Below, in pieces: positions 1,072 to 55,218 of a stretch of DNA of 64,000 nucleotides. The notes under the pieces are model-generated. The model saw nothing but the letters and a program-made list of their open reading frames with translations, was not told the DNA's origin and made no database searches. Position 1 is the first letter of the stretch, and each line of letters begins with the position of its first letter. Source of the stretch: a virus (lineage: Duplodnaviria; Heunggongvirae; Uroviricota; Caudoviricetes). Where the stretch lies: the IMG/VR virus record IMGVR_UViG_3300037455_000543, positions 347,136 to 411,135 of that record. One strand, written 5' to 3'. A program made the position numbers and the translations under genes.

Positions 1072-1129
1072 AATATAGTAAAAAATACCCCTTATGTCAA
1101 TGTATGGGGGTATTAAAATAATATTCAGT
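1072..1129 (-). promoter_or_regulatory. early-type promoter (ACTG box, TTGACA in hairpin, CTATATT)
   Basis: Reverse complement shows ACTG at 1129, TTGACA at 1100-1095 and CTATATT at 1078-1072; flanking inverted repeat AATACCCC/GGGGTATT. Confidence 0.75.
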
Positions 1130-1136
1130 TATCTGT

Positions 1137-1595
1137 TTAAAGAAGTTTCAGTCGTTCTTCAATAGGGCCGTTACGGTCGAATCCGCTATTTTCAAGTAGT
1201 TTGGCTAAAGCTTTTCGTGCCTTTTCATCTTGCTCGTCTTTTCGATATGCGAGGCGCTTAAGCATTGTTTCGAAGCGGAGAAAACGCATCCACTTTTCTC
1301 TATTTTTTTCCGTGCATTCCGAATAAGATCCACCTTTAATATCAAAGATATTCTTAAAAATGGTTTCGATACGCTTTTCCACATATCGAGGCACTTCCAT
1401 TTGCAGTGCATACGAATAGCCCTTCATGAAACAGTCGATAGCCAGATCTTCGTCTTTCTTCTTTACGCCAGCTAGGCTGAGTAGGTCCTTGGCCTGGGTT
1501 TCGGCACTGTCAAAGATTTTTTCAGCTTCCTTATCGGTTTCAGCTACCGGGAATAGCCATTTAAGGTCGTTATGGGTTTTGGTAAAATGTCTCAT
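1137..1595 (-). CDS. hypothetical protein
   Basis: 152-aa ORF with an ATGA overlap with the upstream gene. Confidence 0.75.
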   Translation of the reverse strand: MRHFTKTHNDLKWLFPVAETDKEAEKIFDSAETQAKDLLSLAGVKKKDEDLAIDCFMKGYSYALQMEVPRYVEKRIETIFKNIFDIKGGSYSECTEKNREKWMRFLRFETMLKRLAYRKDEQDEKARKALAKLLENSGFDRNGPIEERLKLL

Positions 1596-1834
1596 AATTC
1601 GTAATGTCCTTTATGTAAAGATACAATATAATCAAAATCGTTCATGAAGAGTTTTTTGATAGCTCTTTTGATTTTGGATAGGTAGGATAGCTGGATCAGT
1701 TGATGAACGTAGCAATTATTATATTCGTCAAGCGGATTACCTATGACATGGGTCCAGACAACCCTGTTGAATATCAGGGGCCTATGGTCAAGGCACCATA
1801 GCTCGTATTCCTGTTCTTTTTTAAAATCCCACAT
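1592..1834 (-). CDS. hypothetical protein
   Basis: 80-aa ORF coupled to its neighbour. Confidence 0.6.
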   Translation of the reverse strand: MWDFKKEQEYELWCLDHRPLIFNRVVWTHVIGNPLDEYNNCYVHQLIQLSYLSKIKRAIKKLFMNDFDYIVSLHKGHYEL

Positions 1835-1847
1835 ATCTTAATTCTGA

Positions 1848-2120
1848 TTATTTTCCAAACATTTCCTGGTAGACGGTAGAATCGGCCTTAGAATCCTTAT
1901 GATAGAAGGCTATATTCTTCAGGTCAATAATGTTTACGCCATTATCACATTCGACGAAGAAGGCATAGGTAAGGATGAATGTCTGTACCTTTAATGTTCC
2001 TGTGCAGAGCTTACCCTGATGGCCTGCGACATAGACGTCACCATGTCCAACGGTATCTTCACTATTACAGCCAGTAAGGGTGGCAAGGGCGAAAGCCGTA
2101 GCGATAAAGAGTTTCTTCAT
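1848..2120 (-). CDS. putative lipoprotein
   Basis: Signal MKKLFIATAFALATLTG-C with lipobox; SD AAGGA. Confidence 0.75.
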   Translation of the reverse strand: MKKLFIATAFALATLTGCNSEDTVGHGDVYVAGHQGKLCTGTLKVQTFILTYAFFVECDNGVNIIDLKNIAFYHKDSKADSTVYQEMFGK

Positions 2121-2149
2121 GTTTTAATTTCCTTTTGGTTTACCCCTAA

Positions 2150-2287
2150 AATATACTAGTTTTTGACCCTTTTGTAAGTAAAAACACCCTGAAAGATTTT
2201 TATCAGTTTTCTATAGGGGGTAGGGGTTGACTGTAAGATAATATCGTCGGGGTAGATATTTAATATGTCCGTGGGAAAAGCTATATT
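2150..2287. promoter_or_regulatory. divergent promoter pair at the strand switch
   Basis: Minus strand: GTATATT at 2156 with ACTG at 2207. Plus strand: ACTG at 2230 with CTATATT at 2281. Confidence 0.7.
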
Positions 2288-2313
2288 AGGGGTATAAACG
2301 AGAGGAAATCAAT

Positions 2314-2823
2314 ATGGATTACAAGCCATTCAAACCTGGAATCAAATATGACGTTATTCTTGATACGAAGCAAGAATATAATAACGTTGAAATCGTTAAC
2401 CCTATTCCCGGGTTCGTCGGGCTTATTTCTACATGGAATAACGGAACAAAAAGTATCAATTGGGTAAATACCAGCCACATTGTCGAGATGTGTGAAAAGC
2501 GTCATCCTATGTATTACTGGGAAATCGAAGACAACAAGTATTGTTTAAGAAAGGACGTGTTCAGTCCGACGGAAGTTGATCTGAACTGGGAATTTGTTCT
2601 TTATTCGGACCGTGAAGAATGTATTAAGGCCATGATTAAGGAACTTGTCAAGCAAGATTCGACAAAGTTCGAAGTCGTCGACGAAGACAATAATCCTATT
2701 TGCCTGTGGCTCACGGACGAAAAAAGATGGTGTGGTTCGCATGGCAAGCTCATGCAGCGTTATATCAATCTTAGTAAGGGTGCTAAAAGTAAGAGCAAAG
2801 GAAAGGGTAAGAAGCAGGGGTAA
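2314..2823 (+). CDS. hypothetical protein (paralog of 3039..3578)
   Basis: SD GAGAGG; shares YDxxL, W and (L/F)YxxxxExxKA patterns with the 3039 protein. Confidence 0.75.
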   Translation: MDYKPFKPGIKYDVILDTKQEYNNVEIVNPIPGFVGLISTWNNGTKSINWVNTSHIVEMCEKRHPMYYWEIEDNKYCLRKDVFSPTEVDLNWEFVLYSDREECIKAMIKELVKQDSTKFEVVDEDNNPICLWLTDEKRWCGSHGKLMQRYINLSKGAKSKSKGKGKKQG

Positions 2824-2829
2824 GCTTAT

Positions 2830-2997
2830 ATGATTATGTGGATTTTTCTGGTAGTCGTGTTGGGGTTGGTTGCTAAAGCTTATGTAGTCCCTATGGTTAT
2901 GAAACGAGTGGCATGGTATATGTTTAAGCGCAAGATGAAACGTCACGGTCGACTGAATCGAGGAATTAGTCTTTTCGATAGTGACAATTTCTTATAA
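2830..2997 (+). CDS. small membrane protein
   Basis: 55-aa ORF below the track cutoff: MIMWIFLVVVLGLVAKAYVV... Confidence 0.5.
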   Translation: MIMWIFLVVVLGLVAKAYVVPMVMKRVAWYMFKRKMKRHGRLNRGISLFDSDNFL

Positions 2998-3009
2998 AAA
3001 TTCTATATT
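2952..3009 (+). promoter_or_regulatory. promoter with ACTG box
   Basis: ACTG at 2952, CTATATT at 3003. Confidence 0.65.
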
Positions 3010-3038
3010 GTTAAGGTAAAAGATAAGGAGCTTAAACT

Positions 3039-3578
3039 ATGTCAGAAAAGACTGAATATGATGAACTGTTGAAAATCGGGCTTTATTATGATATCAGGCT
3101 CAAGAACGATTCTGAATTTCATGACTGCCAGCTTTTGGTCAAGGACCTTGATTGTCGCATGATTAAGATACGACATTATTTGGACGTGGCTGATGGCAAG
3201 CTTAGGATTTTCAGAGAAGAAATGATTAACATGGATCAAATCTTCAAAGTTACATTCCCTAAGAAGTCACGTTTTTTCTGGACTTGTAGTGAAGAACCTG
3301 CTATTAGTTCTGCGCTTTTGGATGATATTCGATTAACAGACGAAGATGTTCGCTACAATAAAGATATCAAATTTTATGATTCTATAGATGAAGCAGTCAA
3401 AGCCATCGTTATTGAAAAGATTGCCAAGAGTGAAAATCCCAAGAATTGGACACTAAAATTTTACGGTTCTAATTGCTGTATTGCCAAGCATACTGGTCAT
3501 TCGTTAAAAGATGGCGGATGGGAAGGCACTCGCAGTCATATAGTCTATGAAACATTGAGCGAACTGAATAAGGAATAA
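3039..3578 (+). CDS. hypothetical protein (paralog of 2314..2823)
   Basis: SD AAGGAG; 179 aa. Confidence 0.75.
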   Translation: MSEKTEYDELLKIGLYYDIRLKNDSEFHDCQLLVKDLDCRMIKIRHYLDVADGKLRIFREEMINMDQIFKVTFPKKSRFFWTCSEEPAISSALLDDIRLTDEDVRYNKDIKFYDSIDEAVKAIVIEKIAKSENPKNWTLKFYGSNCCIAKHTGHSLKDGGWEGTRSHIVYETLSELNKE

Positions 3579-3620
3579 GTCATATAGGCTGTTTACTGTT
3601 TTGACAGGAATTGCTATATT
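3563..3620 (+). promoter_or_regulatory. promoter with ACTG box
   Basis: ACTG at 3563 (inside the upstream CDS), TTTACT -35, CTATATT at 3614. Confidence 0.7.
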
Positions 3621-3647
3621 ATAGGTATCAACGAGAGGAAATAATCC

Positions 3648-4896: not shown

Positions 4897-4902
4897 AGGA
4901 TG

Positions 4903-4960
4903 ACTGGAATATAATTTCTCCTCGTTGAGCGATTACGAAAGTAGTCGCTTTTTCTATATT
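4903..4960 (+). promoter_or_regulatory. promoter/terminator stem-loop with ACTG box
   Basis: ACTG at 4903; hairpin AGCGATTAC-GAAA-GTAGTCGCT plus T-tract; CTATATT at 4954. Confidence 0.75.
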
Positions 4961-4979
4961 ATAAGCATAAACGAGGTGT

Positions 4980-5696
4980 ATGATGATTCACAAGACAGCA
5001 AATCCTGAAATTAACGAACGTCATGTTATTACTGCGAAGTCTAACGGTATTCAGTTTTATATTGGACAGGAAGACCGCAAGGAACTTTGGCCACTTTGGG
5101 TCAAAATGCATCCTAATGGCGTTCTGGCTATTTTAGCAAGACATTATGGTGTTTGCAAATATAATAACAAAGTTGTTTATGATTTCAGAAAGGAAACGCT
5201 TGAGAATCTTCCAGATAAGTGGTTTGATATCACTCCGAATAATCTGTTTTATTCCGAAATTCGTAAAGTCTACGAAATTAATCAGCAACGCAAGTTGAAG
5301 CATAAGCAGAAGTCTGAAGAAATTGAATTCAAGCATGCATTGAAAGCCATCGATAATGATTTTACTAAGAAAGAATTTCTTACCATTTTGTTAGAAAAGT
5401 TTAACATAATGCTTTTCTTCTATGAAGATCAAGAAGTAGTCAAGGTTTATAAAGCTCGTCAGGATTTAGGTTATTGTATAAAGGTAAATTCAAACGGCGA
5501 ACCGTATTATGGAAAGAAATATGGTAAAGATACTCATAGTATCAGAGTAAGCTTCTTTTTCGGAAAGAAGAAAATCGCTGGTGCTTATACATGGGAAACT
5601 ATGCGTGATATCGTTAATATGAAGCGAATGAAAGATATTACTGTGGACGAACTGAAAGAAATTATTGGAACAGAAAAGGTTAAAGAAGCGGTATAA
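4980..5696 (+). CDS. hypothetical protein
   Basis: SD GAGGTG; 238 aa. Confidence 0.75.
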   Translation: MMIHKTANPEINERHVITAKSNGIQFYIGQEDRKELWPLWVKMHPNGVLAILARHYGVCKYNNKVVYDFRKETLENLPDKWFDITPNNLFYSEIRKVYEINQQRKLKHKQKSEEIEFKHALKAIDNDFTKKEFLTILLEKFNIMLFFYEDQEVVKVYKARQDLGYCIKVNSNGEPYYGKKYGKDTHSIRVSFFFGKKKIAGAYTWETMRDIVNMKRMKDITVDELKEIIGTEKVKEAV

Positions 5697-5732
5697 TTTT
5701 CTATATTATAGGTATCAACAAGAGGAAATAAT

Positions 5733-6870: not shown

Positions 6871-6912
6871 CGACTGCGTGTTTTACGTGGTCGACTGTTT
6901 TATTTTTATTTT
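6871..6912 (+). terminator. rho-independent terminator
   Basis: CGACTGCGT-loop-ACGTGGTCG hairpin followed by a T-rich tract. Confidence 0.55.
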
Positions 6913-6973
6913 TGACCCTGTTATTTAAAGCAGTCCATGATATTACTATATTATAGGTATCAAAGAGGTTATA

Positions 6974-8476
6974 ATGGTTAAACAATCCGTAACTGAAAAA
7001 TTCGCAGACGCTCAAAAGATTATTCAGTCTATCTATCCTTCGCTCATGAGCTTTTATGCCATGTGTGAAAGACGTGAGAAGCCTGGTATTACTATGCGTC
7101 TTGATACCAGGACTGGCCGTTGCCCGGTTATCGAATATAACTCGAAGTTTATCGACGCCATTAGCAAAGAAGTTCTTGGCGCACTTACGTCTGTTGAATT
7201 GATCAGACTTTTGTTGCATCATCCGACGACGAGACTTCTTTTGCCCGTAGAACTTTGCTATCAGGCTAGTAATATCATTTGTACGAGAAAGGAAATCTTG
7301 AACTGGAATATCGCACCGTATATCCAGGATTATTTCCCTACGTCCGACGATATTGAAAAAGAACCTGGTTTTAATGTTGCTGAAGACATGTATCTTGAAA
7401 AAGTGTTCAGTATCTTGTTGAACCGAATGAATCAAGAATCTAAGAAGAATCAACAGCAACAGCAACAACAGCAGAGTAAGAGTAATAAAGGTCAAGGCCA
7501 AGAACAACAGCAAAATTCTGGTAAGAGTAAGAAAGACGAACAGCAAAGCCAGCAAAGTCAAGAAGAAGATGGTAGCGGCGAAGACCAGAATTCTGAAAAG
7601 AAAAAGCAGCAGAAAAATAAAAAGCAAGGCCAAGGTAAGGGCGGTAATGATAAAGAAGACGACGCCCAGAATGATAACGAAAATGGTCAGAATGGTTCTG
7701 AAAACAAAAATTCAGACCGCAAATCTTCCAAAGATGACATGGATAACTATGACTCGATGGAAGACGCTCTCGAAAAGCATTTCAGCTCGAAGAACATGAA
7801 GCGTTGTACGGAAAGCTGGGGTGAAAACAGCATCATTGACCAGAAAGTTATCAACCAGCTTGCCAGGGAAAGATCTAACACAAGAAGCTGGGGCACAATG
7901 CCGGCTGACTTGAAGCAAATGATTGATAACGCAAACCGTATCAAGATGGACCCGAGAGCCGTTATCAAAAGATTTGCAAGATCCGTATTTTCTACTATTC
8001 CGTTGTTTACAAGAAGAAAGCCAAGCAAGAAAGATCCTAACCAAGAATGGATTGGCTACATGCAAGGTAAGACCTATCAGCAAAAAGCAAGAGTTTTGTT
8101 TGCGATTGATAGCTCTGGCTCTATGCTTGAAGAACAGCTCGTCAAGGCCGTTGCATTTGTCATGTCCGCTATCAAGCATGCAGAAGTTTACTTCTGTTGG
8201 TGGGATGCTAAATGCACGCCGTTTACTCGACTCAAAACAGTAAAGCCGTCTGTTGAATGCACTGGTGGCGGTGGAACTAATCCGCAATGTGTGCTTGATT
8301 ATTCTCATGAACAAAAGATTAAGTTCGATGGCATTGTGTTTATTACCGACTGTATTTTTAATTGGAAAAAACCGGAAACCAAAGAAAATATCTTTATCAT
8401 GAAGACCGACAATGCAGCTGAAGCACCGGATTGGTGCAAATGGGTCTTGTCGTTCAAGGACATTGAACATCGGTAA
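6974..8476 (+). CDS. DUF2201-type vWA protein with degenerate metallopeptidase-like N-terminus and Q/K/N-rich linker
   Basis: MIDAS motif AIDSSGSM, GGGGTNP, FITD; adjacent to a MoxR-like ATPase. Confidence 0.85.
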   Translation: MVKQSVTEKFADAQKIIQSIYPSLMSFYAMCERREKPGITMRLDTRTGRCPVIEYNSKFIDAISKEVLGALTSVELIRLLLHHPTTRLLLPVELCYQASNIICTRKEILNWNIAPYIQDYFPTSDDIEKEPGFNVAEDMYLEKVFSILLNRMNQESKKNQQQQQQQQSKSNKGQGQEQQQNSGKSKKDEQQSQQSQEEDGSGEDQNSEKKKQQKNKKQGQGKGGNDKEDDAQNDNENGQNGSENKNSDRKSSKDDMDNYDSMEDALEKHFSSKNMKRCTESWGENSIIDQKVINQLARERSNTRSWGTMPADLKQMIDNANRIKMDPRAVIKRFARSVFSTIPLFTRRKPSKKDPNQEWIGYMQGKTYQQKARVLFAIDSSGSMLEEQLVKAVAFVMSAIKHAEVYFCWWDAKCTPFTRLKTVKPSVECTGGGGTNPQCVLDYSHEQKIKFDGIVFITDCIFNWKKPETKENIFIMKTDNAAEAPDWCKWVLSFKDIEHR

Positions 8477-8534
8477 ACTGGAAAGAAATTCGATATAGTA
8501 AATTGTTTAAACAGGTAGTGCAATTTACTATATT
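8477..8534 (+). promoter_or_regulatory. promoter within a 13-bp inverted repeat
   Basis: ACTG at 8477; ATATAGTAAATTG...CAATTTACTATAT; CTATATT at 8528. Confidence 0.7.
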
Positions 8535-8562
8535 ATAATCATCAACGAGAGGATTTAATAAT

Positions 8563-9750
8563 ATGAATATAAAAACTTTGACACTTGCTTGCAAGTTACT
8601 TCCTAAGAAAAAGTCTATCATGCTTAAGGGCGTGCATGGTATCGGTAAGACTGAATGGGTTAAGTCCATGGCAAGGAAATGGAAACTTAAGCTCGTTATC
8701 TGGCATGCATCTCATGCAGCAGACGCTACCGACATTACCGGTATGCCCAAGATTATCAAGGAAACTATCATTTGGTATGACAAGAAGGGCGAAGAACATC
8801 AAGAAGAACATGAAGTGACGGCTACTTGTCCGCCGAAATGGATGCTTCAGAAAGAACCGGTCTTGTTGCTTCTTGACGAAATCAACAGAGGCTTGTCCAT
8901 TGCGATGAATGCTATCATGCAGCTCACCAATGACCAGACCTATGATGATATTTCTTTGCCTGCAGGTTCAAGAATTTTTGCATGTATCAACCCTGAAGAC
9001 AACGGCAAATATGACGTGTCTTCGCTTGACCCGGCACAGCTTTCAAGATTTGCCGTGTATGAGTTTGAACCGTCTTCTGATGAATGGATTGAATGGGCTA
9101 TCACTGCGGGCGTTCATCCGGTAGTTATCTCGTTCATCAAGGCACATCCTGAATATCTTGACCCGTATACTTTGCCTGAATTGGCTGAAACTTGTGTAGG
9201 CCAGGATGCAATGAAGCTCCCGGATAGAAGAGCTTGGGAATGCGTTTCCGATACTTACAAAGAAGCTGAAAAGGCGGGTGTGTTTGAAGAAGGCACTGGT
9301 ATTCTCGACATGACTGAAATTTTTGCTGGCCTTATCGGTCTTGGTGCAGCAGACAAGTTCATGGCATTCGTGTCCGACCAGAATGGCGCACTCAACCCGG
9401 CTGAAGTCATGGAAATGAATCCGATTGACCCGGAAATTCATCAGAAGCTTTTGGAAATGTGTTCCGAAGATATTCCGAGTGTCACGGGCTTCATTGGTTC
9501 TTGCCAGATGTTCTTGGAAACAAGACTTGTGGAATTGAAGAAGAATTCTGCGACTTCTAAGAAGTGGGCTAAGAACTTCTATGAATTGATTAGCCACTTG
9601 CAGCCGGATGCTAAGATGGCAGCACTTGCAACGGTCGTTGTCGATGCTATTAAACGTCATAAAGACTGGGCCCTTACTTTGTGTAAGATTGAACCGAAGT
9701 TCAAAGACTTGGCTTGGTCTGCGGTCTCTAGCAAGAAGAAAGTCTACTAA
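8563..9750 (+). CDS. MoxR-like AAA+ ATPase
   Basis: Walker A GVHGIGKT, Walker B LLLDEINR, INP, LDPAQLSRF, PDRRAWE. Confidence 0.9.
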   Translation: MNIKTLTLACKLLPKKKSIMLKGVHGIGKTEWVKSMARKWKLKLVIWHASHAADATDITGMPKIIKETIIWYDKKGEEHQEEHEVTATCPPKWMLQKEPVLLLLDEINRGLSIAMNAIMQLTNDQTYDDISLPAGSRIFACINPEDNGKYDVSSLDPAQLSRFAVYEFEPSSDEWIEWAITAGVHPVVISFIKAHPEYLDPYTLPELAETCVGQDAMKLPDRRAWECVSDTYKEAEKAGVFEEGTGILDMTEIFAGLIGLGAADKFMAFVSDQNGALNPAEVMEMNPIDPEIHQKLLEMCSEDIPSVTGFIGSCQMFLETRLVELKKNSATSKKWAKNFYELISHLQPDAKMAALATVVVDAIKRHKDWALTLCKIEPKFKDLAWSAVSSKKKVY

Positions 9751-9802: not shown

Positions 9803-9870
9803 AGTTGACTGAGAAAATATATTATCGACCCAGAATAACAATTCAATGTAATAATTTCTATATTATAGTC

Positions 9871-10512
9871 ATGATTCGATTAACAGAGACATATATCAGA
9901 GATTACAAGCTCATCGATGAAAGTCCGCTTGCAGAAAATCGTAAGATGTTCTGGGACTGTCTGACCGCATATATTTCTAAACGGTTTTTCGGAGCCATTG
10001 AGATTGATGGCATATTTAAAGAAATCGGCGGTTATTTTGAAACAAACTATTTTGAGATGGACAAGATAGTCATTCCTGAAGATACTTGTGACGTCGACAT
10101 GGATAAGAAGACGATCAAGTTCAGGAACGATGAAAAGTTTGCGATATTCCTTCATGAAGTCTCGCATTATTACCATATCAAGAAAGATAAGGGTAAGTTC
10201 ATATCAAGAGAATTTGAGGATATGAAACCATATTCGCCAGGTGAACATGGTGAACATTTTAAACCTATGGTCAAATATCTTGAATATGAGGCTGGATGGA
10301 GGTCATTATATTACAATGACATTTATGGGCTGTTTCCAGAGGGTGACAGAACTGTTCTCGAAACTAATCTTAGGAATATACAGCATTATTGTGTTATCGA
10401 AAATATACTTGACTTTGACGGTAACAACGAACAAATTGCCCGTCGAGTTGACGAGTGGATAAAGACGACTGAGAAGTTCAGTTCGGTAGCTGGATTCCGG
10501 ATAGTAATCTGA
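9871..10512 (+). CDS. zincin-like metalloprotease (HExxH)
   Basis: IFLHEVSHYYH with downstream EYEA; likely leaderless ATG at 9871 after CTATATT at 9858. Confidence 0.65.
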   Translation: MIRLTETYIRDYKLIDESPLAENRKMFWDCLTAYISKRFFGAIEIDGIFKEIGGYFETNYFEMDKIVIPEDTCDVDMDKKTIKFRNDEKFAIFLHEVSHYYHIKKDKGKFISREFEDMKPYSPGEHGEHFKPMVKYLEYEAGWRSLYYNDIYGLFPEGDRTVLETNLRNIQHYCVIENILDFDGNNEQIARRVDEWIKTTEKFSSVAGFRIVI

Positions 10513-10587
10513 GAAAAAATCATTTAAGTATATTCACTTACGAATAGAAAATAAAAACCTATATTTAAACAAAAACAAGGAGTCAAT

Positions 10588-11189: not shown

Positions 11190-11362
11190 TGAAGAAATCA
11201 ACTAAGCTTTATCGCCAAGTAGAAGAACTTCTGGGCTGTTTGCCTGATGTCGAAGAGGAATGGATTACCAATCAATCTAAGAGATCAAGGGAACAACTGA
11301 GTCGTGTCGCTGACCGACTGTGTATAATGCAGGAAGTTATAACAGGAATGTTGAGTAACTGA
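11189..11362 (+). CDS. small hypothetical protein
   Basis: 57-aa ORF MKKSTKLYRQVEELL... that fills the gap. Confidence 0.5.
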   Translation: MKKSTKLYRQVEELLGCLPDVEEEWITNQSKRSREQLSRVADRLCIMQEVITGMLSN

Positions 11363-11415
11363 GAGAAAATAAAACTAAAGACCAGGTTTAATAATGACCT
11401 GGTTTTTTCTATATT
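11358..11415 (+). promoter_or_regulatory. promoter/terminator stem-loop with ACTG box
   Basis: ACTG at 11358; ACCAGGT/ACCTGGT hairpin plus T-tract; CTATATT at 11409. Confidence 0.8.
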
Positions 11416-11441
11416 ATAAGTATCAACGAGAGGAAATAACA

Positions 11442-12269: not shown

Positions 12270-12331
12270 TTTCCAGCTTAACAGAAAATTTACTTAACAA
12301 AAATTAAAACTGAAATGATAAAGCCGACTGT

Positions 12332-12339
12332 AATAAATA
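12332..12339 (+). promoter_or_regulatory. possible T4-type late promoter variant (AATAAATA)
   Basis: One mismatch to TATAAATA, upstream of gene 12366, which lacks the early motif. Confidence 0.4.
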
Positions 12340-12365
12340 TATATAAGACACGAGGATTTACATAG

Positions 12366-13973
12366 ATGGGTAGTTTTACTAAATTTATAAACGAAGGAAA
12401 AAGAATCAGTGATTTAGATAGATCAAACGACGTAGCGAATTCTATAATACGTTTGCATAGCATGAAGTCTAATAAAGACTATAAGTTTATCGACATGCAA
12501 AAGTTTAAGAATACCTATGGAAAGTTGGAAGGCTATCTCTATATTGCTGGAACTGAAGGCTTAAGAATCAATTTTAAAAACGACAAGCTTCATTCAATAA
12601 GTTTGTGGGAAAAATATGGTTCTTATGCGCCTGATAGAACAATTCTTATTGACAAAGATACCGATAAGAAAAATCTGTTAAATTTGTATAACAACCTTAA
12701 ACCGGGACTAGATATGAAAATTCATAGCTTACATTATTTCACGCCGAAGACGCATGATGCTTTTATAAGTGTTACGCCGTTCATGGAAGCACTTAAGGAT
12801 AATGGTCCGTGGCATCCGAAGCAGCTTACTCGTTGGCTTGCAGTCTGGGATATTTCCTATCGTCAGTTCTGGGATTTTTGTGATCTTGGTGAATATAGTG
12901 ACGAAGCTGTTTTCAAGTATACTAAAGAAAATATCGATGAATTCGAACAAATCACGAAGCAAGATATTGAATGGCTTGAAGAACAAGCTAATAAAGTCAA
13001 TAATGAATATCAACGTAAACTTGATGGTGAATTCGAAGATGTCGAAGATGTTAAGACTGTAGAACCTGAAGTTATCGAAAACGTTGAAGTCGTATCGAAC
13101 GTCAAGGAAGAAGTCGAAGACAATCCGTATTCTGTTGAAAGCGATGAAGATCTTGCATCTCAGTTAATTGCGGATCCTCTTCCGGTTTTCCGTCAACTCA
13201 ATACCTATGCACTCATGGTTGCACGTGGTCTCAACAATGCACTGTTGATTACTGGACAGGGTGGTGTTGGTAAGTCCTATAATGTGAACAAAATTCTTTC
13301 CACTTATGGTAAGAAGGGCGTTGACTATGTTATCATGAAGGGTAAGAGCTCTGTTTCCGCTATGTATAAATTCCTTTACGACAATTATGACAAGATTGTT
13401 GTATTCGACGATTGCGATAGTGTGCTTCAGAATAATGACGGTCTGAATATTCTTAAGGGCGTTTTGGATAGCGGTGACGTTCGTGAAGTAAGCTGGAATA
13501 CTTCTGGTAGCTGCATGGTTGATACATTCGGTTGTGAAACTCACGAAGAAATCGAACAAAAACTCAAGGCTTGGGAAGAAACTCATAAGAATAAAGTTGG
13601 CATTCCTAACTATTTCCGTTTCATGGGTGCTTGTATCTTTATTAGCAACTTGAGTCGTTCTGACCTTGAAAAGTCTCCGTCTATGCAGGCTCTTCTTGGA
13701 AGATGCACGGCTGTTGATATTCAGTTGATGGCTTCTGATATCATTCTTAGAATTGAGTCGGTTCTTCCGCAGAAGAAAATTTACAATACTCGTGGCCAGG
13801 ATATTTCGGATCCGGCCATCAAGGAAGAAGTTTTCGAATTCATGAAATCTCCGGAATTCATGGAAGATCCGAGAATCAAGAATGCTAACATTAGCTTCAG
13901 ACTTTTCGACAAAATCTATATGTTCAGATATGCTGGCCTTCCGAACTGGAAAGAAATGGCTTACTGTGTCTAA
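12366..13973 (+). CDS. phage AAA-type P-loop ATPase with N-terminal extension
   Basis: Walker A GQGGVGKS, Walker B VVFDDCDS, IFISN, ALLGR. Confidence 0.8.
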   Translation: MGSFTKFINEGKRISDLDRSNDVANSIIRLHSMKSNKDYKFIDMQKFKNTYGKLEGYLYIAGTEGLRINFKNDKLHSISLWEKYGSYAPDRTILIDKDTDKKNLLNLYNNLKPGLDMKIHSLHYFTPKTHDAFISVTPFMEALKDNGPWHPKQLTRWLAVWDISYRQFWDFCDLGEYSDEAVFKYTKENIDEFEQITKQDIEWLEEQANKVNNEYQRKLDGEFEDVEDVKTVEPEVIENVEVVSNVKEEVEDNPYSVESDEDLASQLIADPLPVFRQLNTYALMVARGLNNALLITGQGGVGKSYNVNKILSTYGKKGVDYVIMKGKSSVSAMYKFLYDNYDKIVVFDDCDSVLQNNDGLNILKGVLDSGDVREVSWNTSGSCMVDTFGCETHEEIEQKLKAWEETHKNKVGIPNYFRFMGACIFISNLSRSDLEKSPSMQALLGRCTAVDIQLMASDIILRIESVLPQKKIYNTRGQDISDPAIKEEVFEFMKSPEFMEDPRIKNANISFRLFDKIYMFRYAGLPNWKEMAYCV

Positions 13974-13980
13974 TTAGACG

Positions 13981-14038
13981 ACTGAATAAATAAATTTAAG
14001 ACTTACGGGTTTAAACTTGTAAGTCTTTTTTCTATATT
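13981..14038 (+). promoter_or_regulatory. promoter/terminator stem-loop with ACTG box
   Basis: ACTG at 13981; AAGACTTAC/GTAAGTCTT hairpin plus T-tract; CTATATT at 14032. Confidence 0.8.
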
Positions 14039-14064
14039 ATAAAGGTAATCAAAAGGAGTTTAAC

Positions 14065-14660: not shown

Positions 14661-14672
14661 ATCAACTAGACG

Positions 14673-14730
14673 ACTGAAAGAATATAATGGAGTAAGTAAG
14701 GTTTAAGATTGACCTTACTTTTTCTATATT
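14673..14730 (+). promoter_or_regulatory. promoter/terminator stem-loop with ACTG box
   Basis: ACTG at 14673; AGTAAGGT/ACCTTACT hairpin; CTATATT at 14724. Confidence 0.8.
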
Positions 14731-14736
14731 ATAATC

Positions 14737-15462
14737 ATGTTTGATTGTTGTGTAATGAATCCGCCTTATGAGAAAAGTCTTCACTTGAAGATTATTGCAG
14801 AACTATTACCAAAATGTGAAACAGTAGTTAATATCAGTCCATGCAGATGGCTAGAAGACCCTTTAGCCAGATATAAGAATAATTCTGATTATAAGAAGTT
14901 TGAGGATTCTGTTTCTAAAAAAATCGATGAACTTGATATTATCAAATGTGATAATGCTAATGAATTATTTGATATTGAGCACAGTGATTTGGCAATATAT
15001 AAATTTGGCAATGGCGGATATGATTATGCTAGTCTATCTAAGATGGATAGCATATCGCAAAAGATTTTTGACAAATGTAAATCTTGTAAGACAATGATGG
15101 ATATTTCTACAGAAGAAGGCTATCGTGGAAAACACGATGGAATAATCGGAGTTATTGGTTCTCATCGCCATCCTGGCCCTAAGATTATTTCTGACGATTA
15201 TAATTTGTTCATTACTTATCGAGAAACTTGTGGCAACAAATTAATTTTCTTTAAGAACGAAACTGAACGCCAAAATTGTTTTAAATATCTTACATCCAAG
15301 TTGATAAAGCATTATAGTAGTAAAGTAAGACAGAATCAACGAGTGCCATGGCAATTTATTCCCGTAATCGATTTTTCACAGGAATGTAATGACGGATATC
15401 TAAAAGAATTTTTCGGATTGACTGATAAAGAGTATAAAAATATTTTTATTGACAATTTGTAA
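14737..15462 (+). CDS. amino-methyltransferase catalytic/TRD half (motif IV NPPY onward)
   Basis: Starts MFDCCVMNPPY; ISPCRWL; no SAM-binding motif I. Confidence 0.75.
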   Translation: MFDCCVMNPPYEKSLHLKIIAELLPKCETVVNISPCRWLEDPLARYKNNSDYKKFEDSVSKKIDELDIIKCDNANELFDIEHSDLAIYKFGNGGYDYASLSKMDSISQKIFDKCKSCKTMMDISTEEGYRGKHDGIIGVIGSHRHPGPKIISDDYNLFITYRETCGNKLIFFKNETERQNCFKYLTSKLIKHYSSKVRQNQRVPWQFIPVIDFSQECNDGYLKEFFGLTDKEYKNIFIDNL

Positions 15463-15484
15463 AAAATTTTCTATATTATAAACC

Positions 15485-15946
15485 ATGCAAGATTTAACAA
15501 CGAAGAATGATGGTATTGTTAGAAGTAAAGAAAGAATTACCAAGAATGGTGAAGTCTTTACTCCTAAGGCCTTAGTCGAAAAGATGATGGATAAAATTCC
15601 AGAAGAAAAATGGAAAGATCCTAAGGCTACATTTCTTGAACCTACCTTCGGTTCGGGTAATATGTTGATTTGTATGTTGGAACGTCGTATATCTAGCGGT
15701 ATTTCGCCCATAATCGCTCTACAGACTCTTTTTGGAGTCGAACTAATGCAAGACAACGTTGACTTGTGTAAAAGCCGTATACGCGACGTATTGCGTGTTA
15801 ATAAGGTCAAGATAACGAAGAAGGTAAACGATATTATTGACCATAATTTTGTATGTTCTGATTTTTTCAAATGGGATTTTGAAAACTGGTGCCCAAAAGA
15901 ACAACCAGAATCTTCAGAATCAGAATTATCAGAATTATTTACATAG
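15485..15946 (+). CDS. amino-methyltransferase SAM-binding half (motifs X, I, II, III)
   Basis: GEVFTP, FLEPTFGSGN, FGVEL, CSDF; no NPPY. Confidence 0.8.
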   Translation: MQDLTTKNDGIVRSKERITKNGEVFTPKALVEKMMDKIPEEKWKDPKATFLEPTFGSGNMLICMLERRISSGISPIIALQTLFGVELMQDNVDLCKSRIRDVLRVNKVKITKKVNDIIDHNFVCSDFFKWDFENWCPKEQPESSESELSELFT

Positions 15947-15949
15947 TAA

Positions 15950-16007
15950 ACTGAGATAAAAAGATTATAAAGAAAAGATTGACACTGGTCAGTCTTTTTT
16001 CTATATT
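15950..16007 (+). promoter_or_regulatory. promoter/terminator stem-loop with ACTG box
   Basis: ACTG at 15950; AAGATTGAC-ACTG-GTCAGTCTT hairpin containing TTGACA; 17-nt spacer; TATATT at 16002. Confidence 0.85.
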
Positions 16008-16036
16008 ATAAAGGTAATCAACGAGGAGCATAAACA

Positions 16037-17247: not shown

Positions 17248-17539
17248 ATATGCTTTAATTACAAGGGCTTCTGTTTTTTGGAGTTCTATTGGTATTTTGA
17301 TTGTATATATGCTAATCGGATTAGCTCCATCTATTATGTTGGTATCTGCTAATCAACGTGGCCAATATGCATTAGGTCCATGCTTTTATTGTAGGAATTG
17401 TAATTCTCCTGAAACAGCTGGAAAATATAGTGGTTATTCGACTATTGTAGATACTGTCTGGACAAATAAGGATTATAGTAATCTTGAAAATAAACCGCAA
17501 ACTATGATGGTTAACGGCAAAGAATACATCCTTAAATAA
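17237..17539 (+). CDS. membrane-anchored protein with CxxCxxC (paralog of 14445)
   Basis: N-terminal TM segment; CFYCRNC. Confidence 0.65.
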   Translation: MKREYALITRASVFWSSIGILIVYMLIGLAPSIMLVSANQRGQYALGPCFYCRNCNSPETAGKYSGYSTIVDTVWTNKDYSNLENKPQTMMVNGKEYILK

Positions 17540-17543
17540 GACA

Positions 17544-17601
17544 ACTGATTAGATATTATTATATGAACAGGGTTTAAAAATGACCCTACTTTTTCTATAT
17601 T
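17544..17601 (+). promoter_or_regulatory. promoter stem-loop with ACTG box
   Basis: ACTG at 17544; AGGGT/ACCCT hairpin; CTATATT at 17595. Confidence 0.75.
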
Positions 17602-17628
17602 ATAAAGGTAATCAAAAAGGTGATAGTC

Positions 17629-18769: not shown

Positions 18770-18777
18770 TATAGATA

Positions 18778-18835
18778 ACTGAGAAAATATAATATGACAA
18801 GTAAGGTTTAATAACGACCTTACTTTTTCTATATT
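18778..18835 (+). promoter_or_regulatory. promoter/terminator stem-loop with ACTG box
   Basis: ACTG at 18778; AGTAAGGT/ACCTTACT hairpin; CTATATT at 18829. Confidence 0.8.
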
Positions 18836-18896
18836 ATAAAGGTAGTCGTCGATTTATGATTACGCATCCAACATTAGTCAAGTAAAGGAGAAAACT

Positions 18897-19262: not shown

Positions 19263-19880
19263 ATGAACTTGGGAAAAGATCCATTGTGCTATTCTAAAGC
19301 ATACAGGCATAAGCTAAGAGAAATCTATAAGTCTATTATTGATTATCGCAAAGCTAATCCTTGCAAAGACCAATATTTTGAAATCCATCATATTATTCCT
19401 AAGCATATATGCAAGAAACTTGGAATTGATATGAATTCAATTAATAATAAGGTTCAACTGTCTGTAAAAGAACATGCGTTTGTCCATATGATTCTTGACA
19501 GAACACGTGGCTTTAAAGTTATTGGTAGTAAAAGCCTTAAGCGTATTGCGGAAAACAAGATTAATGGCTATAAACAAACTGGATTGGAAAAGGTAGGAAA
19601 GCCTATTCTTACTAGTGAAGATCGCCATGTGATTAATCTTGGCCGTAAAGAAGTGCTTGCAAAATATAAAAAGAAAATCAATGACTATATTATTACCAAA
19701 GCATCGGCAACTGACTTTTATCATGCTATTTGTGACGTTCTCAGAAAAAAGCTTAATATTCCAAACGAAATTGAATTTAACATGTCGAAAAATATTACAG
19801 GCCATTTGAGAAATAGCATTCCTACGGCATTAACGTTAGGTTTATCGGTAAAAACATTGCTGCGAACTGAAGTAAAATAA
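19263..19880 (+). CDS. HNH (homing-type) endonuclease
   Basis: EIHHIIPK...N...LSVKEHAFVH, as in T4 Mob-like HNH proteins. Confidence 0.75.
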   Translation: MNLGKDPLCYSKAYRHKLREIYKSIIDYRKANPCKDQYFEIHHIIPKHICKKLGIDMNSINNKVQLSVKEHAFVHMILDRTRGFKVIGSKSLKRIAENKINGYKQTGLEKVGKPILTSEDRHVINLGRKEVLAKYKKKINDYIITKASATDFYHAICDVLRKKLNIPNEIEFNMSKNITGHLRNSIPTALTLGLSVKTLLRTEVK

Positions 19881-19923
19881 GATTAAAATAAAGATTGACA
19901 ATTAGTCAGTCTTTTTCTATATT
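19866..19923 (+). promoter_or_regulatory. promoter/terminator stem-loop with ACTG box
   Basis: ACTG at 19866; AAGATTGAC/GTCAGTCTT hairpin; TTGACA-17-TATATT. Confidence 0.85.
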
Positions 19924-19940
19924 ATAATTTAGAGGAAAAA

Positions 19941-20795: not shown

Positions 20796-20801
20796 TGGTT
20801 G

Positions 20802-20859
20802 ACTGAACAAATATAATATGGTAAGTAAGGTTTAATATCGGTCTTATTTTTTCTATATT
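20802..20859 (+). promoter_or_regulatory. promoter stem-loop with ACTG box
   Basis: ACTG at 20802, CTATATT at 20853. Confidence 0.75.
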
Positions 20860-20883
20860 AAGGATATAAAAGGAATATTAATT

Positions 20884-21333: not shown

Positions 21334-21520
21334 ACAATATTGCGTTCAGCTACTTAATCTAACAACTGGAAAAACAAGCCTGTATATTTGTAAGGCGAAT
21401 AACATTTATGAAGCTCTTAAAATCAGTGGTGTAATTCCAAAAGATGCTGATGTAACAGCAGACACTAAATGGGAAACGAACTACAAGTTGGAAACATTAT
21501 ATTCCGAGCCGGTTGACTAA
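21326..21520 (+). CDS. small hypothetical protein
   Basis: SD GGGAG; overlaps the upstream stop. Confidence 0.6.
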   Translation: MPRQYCVQLLNLTTGKTSLYICKANNIYEALKISGVIPKDADVTADTKWETNYKLETLYSEPVD

Positions 21521-21541
21521 AATCAAAATATTATTTAAACG

Positions 21542-21574
21542 AAGATTGACGAAAGTCAGTCTTTTTTCTATATT
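21542..21574 (+). promoter_or_regulatory. promoter/terminator stem-loop
   Basis: AAGATTGAC-GAAA-GTCAGTCTT hairpin; TTGACG-17-TATATT. Confidence 0.85.
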
Positions 21575-21600
21575 ATAAAGGTAATCAAAAGGAGTCAATA

Positions 21601-27098: not shown

Positions 27099-27155
27099 CT
27101 GGTGAATATACTGGATTGAGAACGGGTTAACAAACCCGTTCTTTTTTATTATATT
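27098..27155 (+). promoter_or_regulatory. promoter/terminator stem-loop with ACTG box
   Basis: ACTG at 27098; AGAACGGGTT/AACCCGTTCT hairpin; TTATATT at 27149. Confidence 0.75.
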
Positions 27156-27176
27156 TGATATATCAAAGGATTTAAA

Positions 27177-31647: not shown

Positions 31648-32150
31648 AATTAAAATATAAAGAACTTTATAAACATGTTTTAAAAGAATATCAGCAATTT
31701 AGTAAGTGTGCCAGATTACATGTAGCGGCATTGCTTGTCAATGACGGTAGAATTCTTTGTTGCGGTTATAATGGAACACCAGCAGGACAAATAAACTGTA
31801 ATGAATTATTTAAAGGCGAAGTAATTAATGGTGTATCACATTATTATTTGAGAGATAATCCATATGAAGAATGGCGTGAGACCGATGAACAAGATTGGCG
31901 AGCTGCGCATCATGAATTCGCTAACAAGAACGAATTGCATGCTGAACAAAACCTTCTTGGTCAATGCTTACAAAAGAATATTAATGTAACAGACTGTTCT
32001 ATTGTAATATCTCATGAACCGTGTGAAAGTTGCGCAAGGTTAATTCTTGCGGCAGGTATTAAACATGTGCTATATGTTGACAAGTATGACCGAGGTTCAC
32101 GGGGAATTGAGTTCCTCACGGCAAACGGGGTAAAAGTAGAGCAGTTCTAA
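31644..32150 (+). CDS. cd: dCMP deaminase
   Basis: SKC...GYNG, ELHAEQN, PCESC; T4 Cd-like insertion. Confidence 0.9.
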   Translation: MKLKYKELYKHVLKEYQQFSKCARLHVAALLVNDGRILCCGYNGTPAGQINCNELFKGEVINGVSHYYLRDNPYEEWRETDEQDWRAAHHEFANKNELHAEQNLLGQCLQKNINVTDCSIVISHEPCESCARLILAAGIKHVLYVDKYDRGSRGIEFLTANGVKVEQF

Positions 32151-32208
32151 GTATTGACGGTTATGACTGATTTTACTATATTAATGACATAAAATTAAGG
32201 AGTCATTA

Positions 32209-36685: not shown

Positions 36686-36695
36686 TTAAAAGATA

Positions 36696-36753
36696 ACTGT
36701 TTGATTTTTAATAAGTATATTGGGTTGACAACCAATATACTTTTTTCTATTAT
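36696..36753 (+). promoter_or_regulatory. promoter/terminator stem-loop with ACTG box
   Basis: ACTG at 36696; AGTATATTGG/CCAATATACT hairpin around TTGACA; TATTAT at 36748. Confidence 0.8.
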
Positions 36754-36762
36754 TATATCTGT

Positions 36763-51810: not shown

Positions 51811-52077
51811 ATGTTAAAAAAATTTCTATCTTTGTTTACACGTGAAAAGATAATGGCTATCAGTACCGATAGTAGTTGGGGAGGAGTACGAAAATATCCC
51901 CAATGGTGGTTTATCTGGTGGCATTTTTATTGGCAACAAGATGGATATGAGCATTATTCACCTATTAGTTATTCAATTACCGATGAAGAAAGATTAAGAA
52001 GTATAAATAAGACGAAATATATAATAGACCAATTTAATAAATTACGGATAGATAATGAAAATATTAAAGCCAATTAA
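51811..52077 (+). CDS. hypothetical protein
   Basis: Trp-rich; in operon. Confidence 0.6.
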   Translation: MLKKFLSLFTREKIMAISTDSSWGGVRKYPQWWFIWWHFYWQQDGYEHYSPISYSITDEERLRSINKTKYIIDQFNKLRIDNENIKAN

Positions 52078-53140: not shown

Positions 53141-53325
53141 GTGAATATGAAAAAACATACAATCATATTAAAGCAGTAGTAAAAAAGTTGTTAGATAACG
53201 GAACAACTTTCGTTGTTGCAACTCAGTCATTTAGATATAATAGTGACGGTATACCAGAACCACGACTTCCTATGCCATCAAATGAAAACGTCTTTTTTAT
53301 TGATTATGATAGTTCATTTAGATAG
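53137..53325 (+). CDS. hypothetical protein
   Basis: ATGA coupling. Confidence 0.55.
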   Translation: MSEYEKTYNHIKAVVKKLLDNGTTFVVATQSFRYNSDGIPEPRLPMPSNENVFFIDYDSSFR

Positions 53326-53378
53326 TTAAGTTTAATATAGGGTTTACAAAAACCCTATATTTTTTTATATTGTATATT

Positions 53379-53570
53379 ATGCGTGTATTCAAAATCGAAA
53401 CATTTGATAGTGCAAGCAGAATGGCTAAGTTTATCAACGAAATGGAAGAAGATAAAGCAAAAGACATTCAGATTGTTCAAATTGTAAGTAGAAGAATCGC
53501 AGATATATGTAATGTTTATGATTTATGTTATTGGGAAATTACTAAAAAGAGAACTAAAAGATGCAAATAA
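53379..53570 (+). CDS. hypothetical protein
   Basis: Leaderless. Confidence 0.6.
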   Translation: MRVFKIETFDSASRMAKFINEMEEDKAKDIQIVQIVSRRIADICNVYDLCYWEITKKRTKRCK

Positions 53571-53866
53571 TCAAGAAAATTTTAGCTTTTTTCTATAACA
53601 AGGAATATAAGCAATTAAAAAAGTTTATCCGTGTAATCGGACCTCATGTTGTTACATTCTATATTGTAAGAAAGACAAAGAAATATCTTGGTGGTCTTAT
53701 AGAGTTGAATGCAAATGTTTTATGGGACGATTACGATTCTAAAAAAGTGTCTGATGAAGAAAAGTATTATATGGACATGAGCGTTCATGCTGCTGCATTT
53801 ACGATTCTTGCAACGGAATGGAAAACTATGATAAATCATATTGAACCGGAGGCGGTTAATGACTAA
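53561..53866 (+). CDS. hypothetical protein
   Basis: In operon. Confidence 0.65.
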   Translation: MQIIKKILAFFYNKEYKQLKKFIRVIGPHVVTFYIVRKTKKYLGGLIELNANVLWDDYDSKKVSDEEKYYMDMSVHAAAFTILATEWKTMINHIEPEAVND

Positions 53867-54227
53867 AGAAGAACTTATTGCTGAATTACAGAAAATTGAA
53901 GGAAATCCGACCATTGGTATTGGGTTAAATAAAGCATGGGGTAAGTATTGTCTAGCTATTAGTGGCATTACTCCATTATATAATCATGATGGCCATAAGG
54001 TAGAAGGCGTATCAGTTTTAGAAATTAACGCTGAAGATGCTCATCCAATGACACAAGAACAGCTTATGGTTCGTAAGCAAATTTCTCTTAGTAAGAAATA
54101 TGGACCGTTAGTTAATTGTAGTATTGATGAACGATTCTGGGCGGTAAATGGTCCATGGCTAGATAAATGGAACAAAGAAAAAATTGAAATGCTAGAAAAC
54201 AAGATAAAGCAGTTAGAAAATAAGTAA
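53859..54227 (+). CDS. hypothetical protein
   Basis: SD GGAGG; MTKEELIAELQK. Confidence 0.7.
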   Translation: MTKEELIAELQKIEGNPTIGIGLNKAWGKYCLAISGITPLYNHDGHKVEGVSVLEINAEDAHPMTQEQLMVRKQISLSKKYGPLVNCSIDERFWAVNGPWLDKWNKEKIEMLENKIKQLENK

Positions 54228-54274
54228 TATCAATAGGGTTTACAAAAACCCTATATTTTTTTATATTATATTAT

Positions 54275-54661
54275 ATGAGTATTTCCGTATTTAATACCAA
54301 AAAATTCAAAGAAAATTTATTTTATGTTCGTTCATTGAACGCAGTTGTCGTTGCAATGATACTTTTACCAGTTCTTATATATTTTTGTGCAGAGTGCCCA
54401 ATACAAGGAGTTGGTGAACTTCTTTGCTTCTTTGGTCTAAGTTTAATGATTTTTGGAATGCCTATTATAGGTATTGTTGCTTTTATAAATGATACTACTG
54501 GTCCGACAAATAGCACAGTAAGAATTATATTATCAATTTTATTAGCGCCCACAATTATTGTTGTGGAACCAATATACAGGCTGATTTATAAATGTTTATA
54601 CGGTAGAGCTTACAAACGACAAGAACTTTATAGAATGGTAGGAGAATTTAAAGGTGTTTAG
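54275..54661 (+). CDS. membrane protein
   Basis: Three TM segments; leaderless. Confidence 0.7.
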   Translation: MSISVFNTKKFKENLFYVRSLNAVVVAMILLPVLIYFCAECPIQGVGELLCFFGLSLMIFGMPIIGIVAFINDTTGPTNSTVRIILSILLAPTIIVVEPIYRLIYKCLYGRAYKRQELYRMVGEFKGV

Positions 54662-55151
54662 TATTTTTGGTCATAAGAAAGATAAATATCCTTTACATGA
54701 TGAAGCACATATTGTCCATAATACTGGGTGGTTTAGTTCATTTAAAGGCGAAAAAGACGAATTTCATCAGAAAATTAAAAAAGCTCTTAATTTTATAAAT
54801 GTCAATAAGCTTGAACAGACTAAAAAACAATATGCTATTATTGAATTTGAAAAAGAAGATGTAGTTTTAGTTCTTGGTAATTATCGTGGAATGGCTATGG
54901 TTAAGAAATACAATAATCCTGGTCATCCATTAGAAAAAATGCTTGATTATACATGGGAAACATGTTGGTTAAGTTATGGCTTTGATTATAAAGAAAGCAC
55001 TATCTATAAATGGTATATCACTCCGTTGCCTGAAGTTATTGTAAAAGGTGTATTTGAAGATATGTATGCAGTAATGCATAATGTAAATGACATAATGGGT
55101 AATAAGCTTACTTATATGTTTGACAAATATACTATAAAAGATAATGTATAG
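54654..55151 (+). CDS. hypothetical protein
   Basis: GTG start; SD AGGAG. Confidence 0.7.
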   Translation: MFSIFGHKKDKYPLHDEAHIVHNTGWFSSFKGEKDEFHQKIKKALNFINVNKLEQTKKQYAIIEFEKEDVVLVLGNYRGMAMVKKYNNPGHPLEKMLDYTWETCWLSYGFDYKESTIYKWYITPLPEVIVKGVFEDMYAVMHNVNDIMGNKLTYMFDKYTIKDNV

Positions 55152-55218
55152 ATAACTGGAAATTTATGTAACTATTAAACCGTTTACAAAAAACGGTTTT
55201 TTTATTATATTTTAAACC

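Follow-up and report, generated by a model that had tools for sequence, protein, structure and literature searches.

A short sequence element built around the tetramer ACTG stands at a fixed distance upstream of a large class of sigma-70-type promoters in a giant T4-related phage, and on balance this element, which we call the box, is probably the docking site of a dedicated protein that communicates with the host RNA polymerase. It lies in a 64,000-nucleotide stretch of DNA (the window) that covers positions 347,136-411,135 of the 424,163-bp virus record IMGVR_UViG_3300037455_000543 (G+C 35%). The box has a constant geometry, is restricted to one class of promoters, is kept by selection and is conserved in related phages.

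Judged from its genes the phage is a giant T4 relative, because it encodes a gp44-type clamp loader, an nrdC.10-like NTPase and a gp55-like sigma open reading frame (ORF). The termini of the record overlap by 127 bp, which indicates a circular or permuted assembly. Megablast against cultured phages gave no match, so that there is no close cultured phage, and the tblastn matches were to distant T4-type relatives and one 642-kb uncultured phage, and to nothing else. A genome search found only region 2 in the gp55-like ORF and no sigma region 4 in the phage genome; judged from this absence, the core promoters described below must be read by the host primary sigma.

Enrichment of ACTG at a fixed distance from the -10

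Distances are counted here from the A of ACTG, so that 52 nt to the T of TATATT equals 51 nt to CTATATT. Within the window, ACTG occurs 16 times at offset 52 from TATATT and four times at offset 51, where about 0.6 are expected per offset; genome-wide the counts are 20, 47 and 8 at offsets 51, 52 and 53, and 1-9 at each other offset from 20 to 119. The same peak is found in a set of promoters chosen without reference to the box, namely a -35 of TTGACA or TTTACA (one mismatch allowed), a spacer of N16-18 and TATATT, which gave 193 sites genome-wide with N17 in nearly all. In these, ACTG stands at offset 52 in 32 cases, where the mean per offset is 0.84 (Poisson p = 7e-39), and the fixed spacing that a sequence-only reading of this DNA had described therefore holds. 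A generic promoter scan, by comparison, gave 87 matches against 71.8 in shuffles, which is barely above, and its best matches were sites of the 193-promoter set.

In a blind positional scan of tetramers upstream of -26, ACTG at -52 ranked second (p = 3.5e-38, 8,211 tests). The top-ranked signal (p = 5e-49), seen in the window and in the whole genome, was AGGG or GGG directly before the -35 (AGGGTTTACA), at -27 relative to the first base of the -10; its presence is independent of that of the box (Fisher p = 0.71), and the idea that this extended -35 and the box are mutually exclusive was rejected, since there is no such pattern.

The individual sites named by the sequence-only reading were also compared with the letters, and the tetramer given for each is present at all 27 coordinates. 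Of the 17 sites placed at 51 nt, 16 lie exactly 51 nt before C/T/G-TATATT; at 36696 the distance stands but the -10 is the variant CTATTAT, not CTATATT. Spacings of 50 nt at 5651, 9808, 15421 and 55155, and of 52 nt at 6894, are as described. Among the near-matches, those at 10508, 32837 and 32125 are at 51 nt, that at 29018 is at 52 and not 51, and that at 6025 is at 51 nt but before a -10 variant, CTAAATT.

Geometry of the box and the class of promoters that carries it

The element is wider than ACTG. In this phage it is an 11-bp sequence, rG-n-T-R-ACTG-A-A, with conserved G at -56 (39/47), T at -54 and R at -53, followed by ACTG and then A-A, and an A-rich run from about -47 to -39 follows directly on its 3' side. 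When a weight matrix of the box was applied to the 193 promoters, 57 scored at least 6 bits, as against 2 at a control offset, and the spacing in these 57 was 52, 51 or 53 nt in 41, 10 and 6 cases. The box has a single orientation; neither the opposite strand nor a shift by one or two helical turns gives a further peak. A -35 hexamer close to consensus follows 29 +/- 1 nt downstream of it, and the distance from the centre of the box to the centre of the -35 is 31 bp, or three helical turns. If transcription starts, as we presume from the sequence, at the A of a shared CAT seven nucleotides after TATATT, the box centre would be at about -63 and the box would span about -68 to -58; its C and G are invariant. 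One further possibility, that the box is the -35 of an upstream tandem promoter, as its resemblance to TTGACT might suggest, was rejected: nothing like a -10 follows 17 bp downstream, where the information content is about 0 (-32 to -27).

Box promoters differ from the others in more than the box. They share C-A-T at +11 to +13 from the first base of the -10, and CAT is enriched at the presumed start; A at +6 is found in 89% of box promoters as against 35% of box-less ones; an ATA after the -10 is favoured (odds ratio 8.4, p = 5e-10); and A at -43, as well as the A tract, is stronger. Together these make up a downstream signature, TATATT-ATA-nn-CAT-MAAC (for example at window 3620-3630 and 14038-14048), that is rare in box-less promoters and probably combines the discriminator with the start site and the first bases of a common leader. 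A small sub-family is also visible in the leftward arm described below and in a related phage, G001, with AGAAT (CCAGAATTTAAC) in the spacer at positions -10/-9 from the -10 start, and with AATTCTGA or TCCAGAAT at -36 from the same base, in the stretch from box to -35. These features are confined to box promoters, with 9 and 4 of 57 against 0/131; the distribution of TATAAATA was uninformative.

The sequence-only reading had stated that the DNA between box and -10 varies, and it does. Pairwise identity among box promoters is 0.27 at -80 to -58 and 0.31 at -38 to -24, where random sequence gives 0.27, but 0.62 over the box. As the flanking DNA has thus diverged to randomness while the box has kept its identity, it is selection and not recent duplication that, by this comparison, keeps the box.

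The same comparison bears on whether the box is simply the legacy, or 5' recombination edge, of a mobile promoter-terminator cassette of the promoter-early stem-loop (PeSL) type, and is read by nothing. The cassettes do fit the description of PeSL and stand before ORFans (PMC2839356, PMC4122927), and the similarity between related cassettes begins at the box, with the leader sequence also shared, although this is a descriptive comparison in which paralogues are mixed and it is suggestive only. However, a mere edge would not explain why the DNA from box to -35 is randomised while the box stays, why the box persists inside coding sequence, or why its position is kept within +/-1 nt in phages with only about 50% protein identity; moreover, recombination driven by homology needs no fixed 11-mer. 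We consider this explanation unlikely.

Genomic distribution and relation to terminators and upstream genes

Box promoters are concentrated in one part of the genome. Between 283 and 375.5 kb the box is present in 52/80 canonical promoters, and outside this region in 5/113 (odds ratio 40, p = 9e-21), in agreement with the earlier statement that it is nearly universal in the first 22 kb of the window and mostly absent beyond 37 kb. The region is a divergently transcribed block of about 90 kb, with its divergence point at about 349.35 kb (window about 2,215), and 51 of the 52 box promoters in it point away from that point. With their own downstream signature and their own genomic block, the box promoters are supported as a separate class; in this respect the earlier proposal of a site at about -64 that defines a promoter class is supported, both for the distance-locked element and for the separate class.

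Many of the cassettes contain a terminator hairpin (about 40-45% of box promoters: 21/46 with exact ACTG at dG <= -8, and 24/57 of the score-based set), and terminator-like sites number 20 in 20 kb against 10.5 in shuffles. The box does not depend on them: in the block it accompanies 21/32 promoters with a hairpin and 19/47 without, and the A tract that follows it is likewise independent of the hairpin. At 106 intrinsic terminators without a -10 there is no ACTG or CTGA peak at the equivalent distance, whereas for 56 hairpin-plus-T-run terminators fused to TATATT the count was 11 at a single offset. The notion that the box acts as a roadblock in place of a terminator was rejected, since it is not commoner where the hairpin is missing.

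Nor does the box depend on an upstream gene. The two first promoters of the divergent arms, which lie back to back, both carry it with no same-strand gene or transcript upstream. In 18/50 cases the box lies within the upstream ORF, confirming the earlier remark that it persists in coding sequence, and in 13/50 it lies more than 15 nt past the upstream stop. From the independence of the hairpin, the promoterless terminators without the box, the divergent first promoters and the boxes inside ORFs, we conclude that the box is a DNA-level element tied to the promoter, and not to the terminator or the upstream gene.

These data also speak to the idea that the box works in RNA, as an element that starts the 3' untranslated region of the upstream mRNA, or that it is a stop context in several frames, given the T-R-A and the TGA within the motif. 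Consistent with this, in 27/50 cases the last base of the upstream stop codon falls between -5 and +7 nt relative to the box, so that genes tend to end where the cassette begins (the leader from promoter to start codon is typically 15-24 nt), the TGA of ACTGA is itself the upstream stop in 3, and five promoters (genome 283697-318771) have AACCTC just upstream, 10-12 nt from the box, a distance that makes it a separate element and not part of the box. Yet the box is missing from terminators that have no promoter, is present at the two divergent first promoters although no gene precedes them, is read through inside an ORF in 18/50 cases and lies more than 15 nt past the stop in 13; furthermore, the commonest form in G001, R-T-CTG, has no T-R-A stop, and the spacing is locked to the -35 and -10 even where there is no hairpin. 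An RNA-level role as the explanation of the box is therefore, in our judgement, very improbable.

Some local observations concern the box and its variants. On the minus strand at genome 284.5-290 kb (L135) is an array of paralogous cassettes with GATGACCGG at the box position, ACCG replacing ACTG, and in this array a hairpin ahead of the -35 has the box as its 5' arm. Forms with the box in a stem are also found at genome 329413 and 300519 and in G001. A cluster of G..RACTG at genome 342.8-344.9 kb, considered as a possible decoy array, is ordinary coding sequence and was rejected.

Conservation in related phages and absence from bacterial genomes

Relatives were sought through six IMG/VR loci obtained by protein search and then by a motif scan of IMG/VR. 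G001 (415,750 bp) is 56% identical in the matched portion of one query protein; it has 51 promoters of the form CTG-N25-TTKAC-N18-TATATT, with none in a reversed control, and its box promoters likewise form a divergent block. In a second relative, which was located by protein and not by motif (L006), CTG is at the same place in 10/13 promoters, and the motif scan added many further contigs, at least ten distinct ones among them with several box promoters. In two other giant contigs (291 kb and 411 kb) the box is less strictly kept, and in the relative L001 it is absent. Across the clade the consensus at the box position is GGTT-R-N-CTGAA, in which the A of ACTG is the least conserved base (in G001, T 33, A 15 and G 8 of 87 promoters), while the position itself is kept as closely as noted above.

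To this may be added a search for the box together with its promoter in the genomes of 185,579 bacterial and archaeal species, which returned 11 single matches in scattered taxa, about the chance level. The box is thus, as far as such a scan can tell, not a common part of bacterial host promoters, and we rejected it as a host promoter feature. Four of the 11 singletons (L123, L125, L126 and L132, on contigs of Eubacteriales and Clostridia metagenome-assembled genomes) look like genuine strong promoters: the upstream part is A/T-rich, the -10 has a TG extension and the box position reads GGTTnnCTGAA. Their number is compatible with chance.

These comparisons are relevant to whether the polymerase itself reads the box, through the second alpha C-terminal domain or another surface, as an extension of an UP element that makes 'uber' promoters like the early promoters of T4. 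In favour of this, the box directly adjoins an A-rich tract located where a distal UP subsite would be, its position falls into the helical series -42/-52/-62, both core hexamers are close to consensus as they stand, and the additional consensus regions in T4 early promoters are thought to optimise contact with polymerase (PMC2988021). On the other hand, by the work of Estrem et al. (cited in PMC1524935), the alpha C-terminal domain reads A/T-rich minor grooves and not a G/C-containing asymmetric 11-mer. It would also be difficult to understand why about 130 equally good promoters in the same phage have no box, why the preferred base at one position is A here but T in G001, and why no bacterial genome in the scan has several box promoters. 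Direct reading by polymerase is, we think, rather unlikely.

A proposed docking site for a polymerase-contacting protein

Our proposal is a sequence-specific protein that would bind the box from the side of the DNA also occupied by sigma region 4 and the alpha C-terminal domains, and from there touch the host sigma-70-type RNA polymerase. The A-rich tract after the box would occupy the position of the distal UP subsite. In this way about 60 cassette promoters of the ORFan-rich divergent block would gain a control input, while about 130 others of the same -35/-10 type would be without it. The proposal is based on the box being short, asymmetric, of one orientation, held to +/-1 bp on the face turned to polymerase, adjoined by an A tract and confined to one class, which are the properties of a stereospecific site of contact with polymerase. 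That a protein reads the box, that this protein contacts polymerase and that the class so marked is a temporal one are steps that we infer from this arrangement. Related phages prefer different bases at one position of the box, and for this reason we lean towards a factor that is encoded by the phage, rather than carried in the virion or supplied by the host. Such a factor may either boost the box promoters or shut them off. The more specific suggestion, that the box is the recognition element of an undescribed factor, phage-encoded or delivered with the virion, that rides host RNA polymerase about 30 bp upstream of an intact -35, is offered as a tentative one.

A number of findings weigh against a docking protein. 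The site has no dyad symmetry. The mean number of mismatches in the -35 is 0.88 in box promoters and 0.86 in box-less ones, and therefore the box does not compensate for a weak core promoter, unlike the case of typical activator-dependent promoters, including those of class I, where the core is too weak without its activator. A classic activator site is also disfavoured by the width of the element, which extends beyond ACTG and has the A of that tetramer as its least conserved base. The tendency of upstream stop codons to end at the box leaves a small probability of a role at the mRNA 3' end, and stop codons may add to the T-R-A of the motif. Furthermore, no candidate for the reader was found among the ORFs of the block: there is no helix-turn-helix family among the 25 listed of 28 Pfam families in 86 block ORFs, and the small block ORFans that are best conserved are mostly acidic and unannotated.

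Other searches for the reader gave similar results. The ten block ORFs best conserved across box-bearing contigs include no DNA-binding family by Pfam and PHROGs, and the first genes at the divergence point of this phage and of G001 have no evident likeness by eye. Profiles for MotA (MotCF) and AsiA (PF09158, PF09010) had no match in the genome, but this is a weak negative, as the control genomes were without a match too. Among the Pfam families listed for the block, SpoVG alone is of a nucleic-acid-binding kind, and bacterial SpoVG proteins bind both DNA and RNA. The phage has two homologues (PF04026), one at genome 343373-343624 (-) (L133; E = 5e-19), in the leftward arm of the block about 3.5 kb before the start of the window, and another at 259174-259416 (+) (L134; E = 3.5e-8); no link between these homologues and the box was found.

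Comparison with known promoter systems

The cassettes themselves resemble the PeSL modules of the T4-type phages RB49/phi1, PST/T4 and nt-1/KVP40 (PMC2839356, PMC4122927). Both have an upstream stop, an A/T-rich stretch, a sigma-70-type -35/N17/-10, a stem-loop that overlaps or adjoins the promoter, a Shine-Dalgarno sequence and a start codon, and in both the modules cluster before ORFans in hyperplastic regions; in the present phage these are a sigma-70-like -35 and -10 at 17 bp, a terminating stem-loop and clustering before small, ORFan-rich genes. The difference is that the published upstream part is A/T-rich only, whereas here an added G/C-containing 11-mer at fixed distance splits the cassettes into two classes.

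T4 early promoters, described as 'UP/-35/TGn/-10' with UP elements (PMC2988021, PMC1524935), are likewise promoters of the host sigma-70 holoenzyme with near-consensus hexamers, an A-rich upstream tract and extra consensus positions. Their A-rich conservation, however, is at about -40 to -44 and -52, with no box described at about -64, and they have TGn, while the -10 here is TATATT without TGn. UP elements are A/T-rich and lie at about -40 to -60; the box is not of this kind, and only the adjoining A tract fits. With regard to the earlier suggestion that a modified alpha C-terminal domain may read the box, no gene of the Alt/ModA type was found with T4 ModA as the query (nothing at E <= 0.1 in the genome), although a search with a single sequence can miss distant relatives. 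The mechanism by which T4 early promoters are shut off was given as still unknown (PMC2988021).

With the MotA box the present element has in common that it is a short, asymmetric, phage-specific box at a fixed distance from a sigma-70 -10, which defines a class of promoters in a T4-type phage (PMC2988021). The MotA box, however, is centred at -30 and replaces the -35 (PMC2988021), whereas here the -35 is kept and the box is about 30 bp further upstream. The earlier contention that the element is unlike both the MotA box in position and A/T-rich UP elements is borne out by this, and by the invariant C and G of the box.

In its geometry the box resembles the sites of class I activators. Examples are the site of CAP at -61.5 in lac and the 'marbox' of monomeric MarA, SoxS and Rob in class I promoters. 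Like the box, if transcription starts where the sequence suggests, these sites are centred near -62 or -63 on the polymerase face and directly upstream of an A tract of the type contacted by the alpha C-terminal domain, and marboxes are also asymmetric and dependent on orientation and distance. Here, by contrast, the -35 is strong, the site is 11 bp and lacks a dyad such as that of CAP, and there is no sequence likeness to the CAP site or the marbox. A G/C-containing box near -64 appears in none of PMC2839356, PMC4122927, PMC2988021 and PMC1524935, nor was one met with in literature searches.

Promoters and genes of the window

In what follows, cassettes are given in window coordinates, with the strand in brackets. 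The leftward arm has a cassette at 1065-1134 (-), with box AGATAACTGAAT (ACTG at 1129, 51 nt before CTATATT), -35 TTGACA and -10 TATATT. The first promoter of this arm, at 2143-2212 (-) with box AGAAAACTGATA, has no same-strand gene upstream and is back to back with the promoter that opens the rightward arm, at 2225-2294 (+) with box GGTTGACTGTAA. All further cassettes are on the plus strand. That at 2947-3016 (+) has GGTCGACTGAAT and a -35 of GTGACA. The box is within the upstream ORF at 3558-3627 (+; ORF 3039-3578), 5646-5714 (+; ORF 4980-5696, 50-nt spacing), 15416-15484 (+; ORF 14737-15462, 50 nt) and 19861-19930 (+; ORF 19263-19880). Terminator hairpins accompany the cassettes at 4898-4967 (+; hairpin 4927-4950, over the -35), 11353-11422 (+; 11377-11407), 13976-14045 (+; 13998-14027), 14668-14737 (+; 14694-14720), 15945-16014 (+; 15971-16000) and 18773-18842 (+; 18799-18825). 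Others are at 6889-6959 (+; 52-nt spacing), 8472-8541 (+; GGTAAACTGGAA), 17539-17608 (+) and 20797-20866 (+), the last of which, GGTTGACTGAAC, is the best match to the clade consensus.

Several sites depart from the common form. The cassette at 10503-10572 (+) has the variant TCTG, which is the dominant form in G001. The 50-nt site at 9803-9871 (+; ACTG at 9808, CTATATT at 9858) has a poor -35, TAACAA, and is outside the canonical set, and 21511-21581 (+; GGTTGACTAAAA, 52 nt) is a weak variant. A possible extra cassette at 12322-12392 (+), absent from the first list and uncertain, has AGCCGACTGTAA, a -35 of TTTACA and a -10 of TAAATT at 52 nt. The final cassette of the block is at 27093-27162 (+; AGATAACTGGTG). 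Beyond it there are a near-match with ACGG at the box position at 32120-32189 (+) and two isolated box promoters, at 36691-36760 (+; -10 variant TATTAT) and 55150-55218 (+; 50 nt).

The block that these promoters serve is rich in ORFans, as about 10 of the 86 ORFs scanned have any Pfam family. Among its ORFs (window 1-28000 together with L137-L138) are a GroEL-type chaperonin (PF00118, E = 2e-69), a MoxR-like AAA_5 ATPase at window 8563-9750, a weak VWA-like match (DUF2201, E = 0.004) and an Imm51-like protein; the remaining small ORFs are mostly unannotated.

Significance

T4-type phages are the textbook case of the stepwise capture of host RNA polymerase, and the box bears on the question of how pre-replicative genes are sorted in relatives that apparently have neither MotA nor AsiA. 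The element is shared by about 60 promoters here and by more than 100 in relatives, and is absent from about 130 that are otherwise equivalent, so that the same core promoter can be compared with and without it, and the box can be used as bait for its reader. It also refines the model of PeSL cassettes, in that the cassettes come in regulatory classes. If our proposal is true, a giant T4-related clade would set apart a class of promoters in this way in place of control of the MotA/AsiA type, and the factor that reads the box could be the missing switch that ends early transcription.

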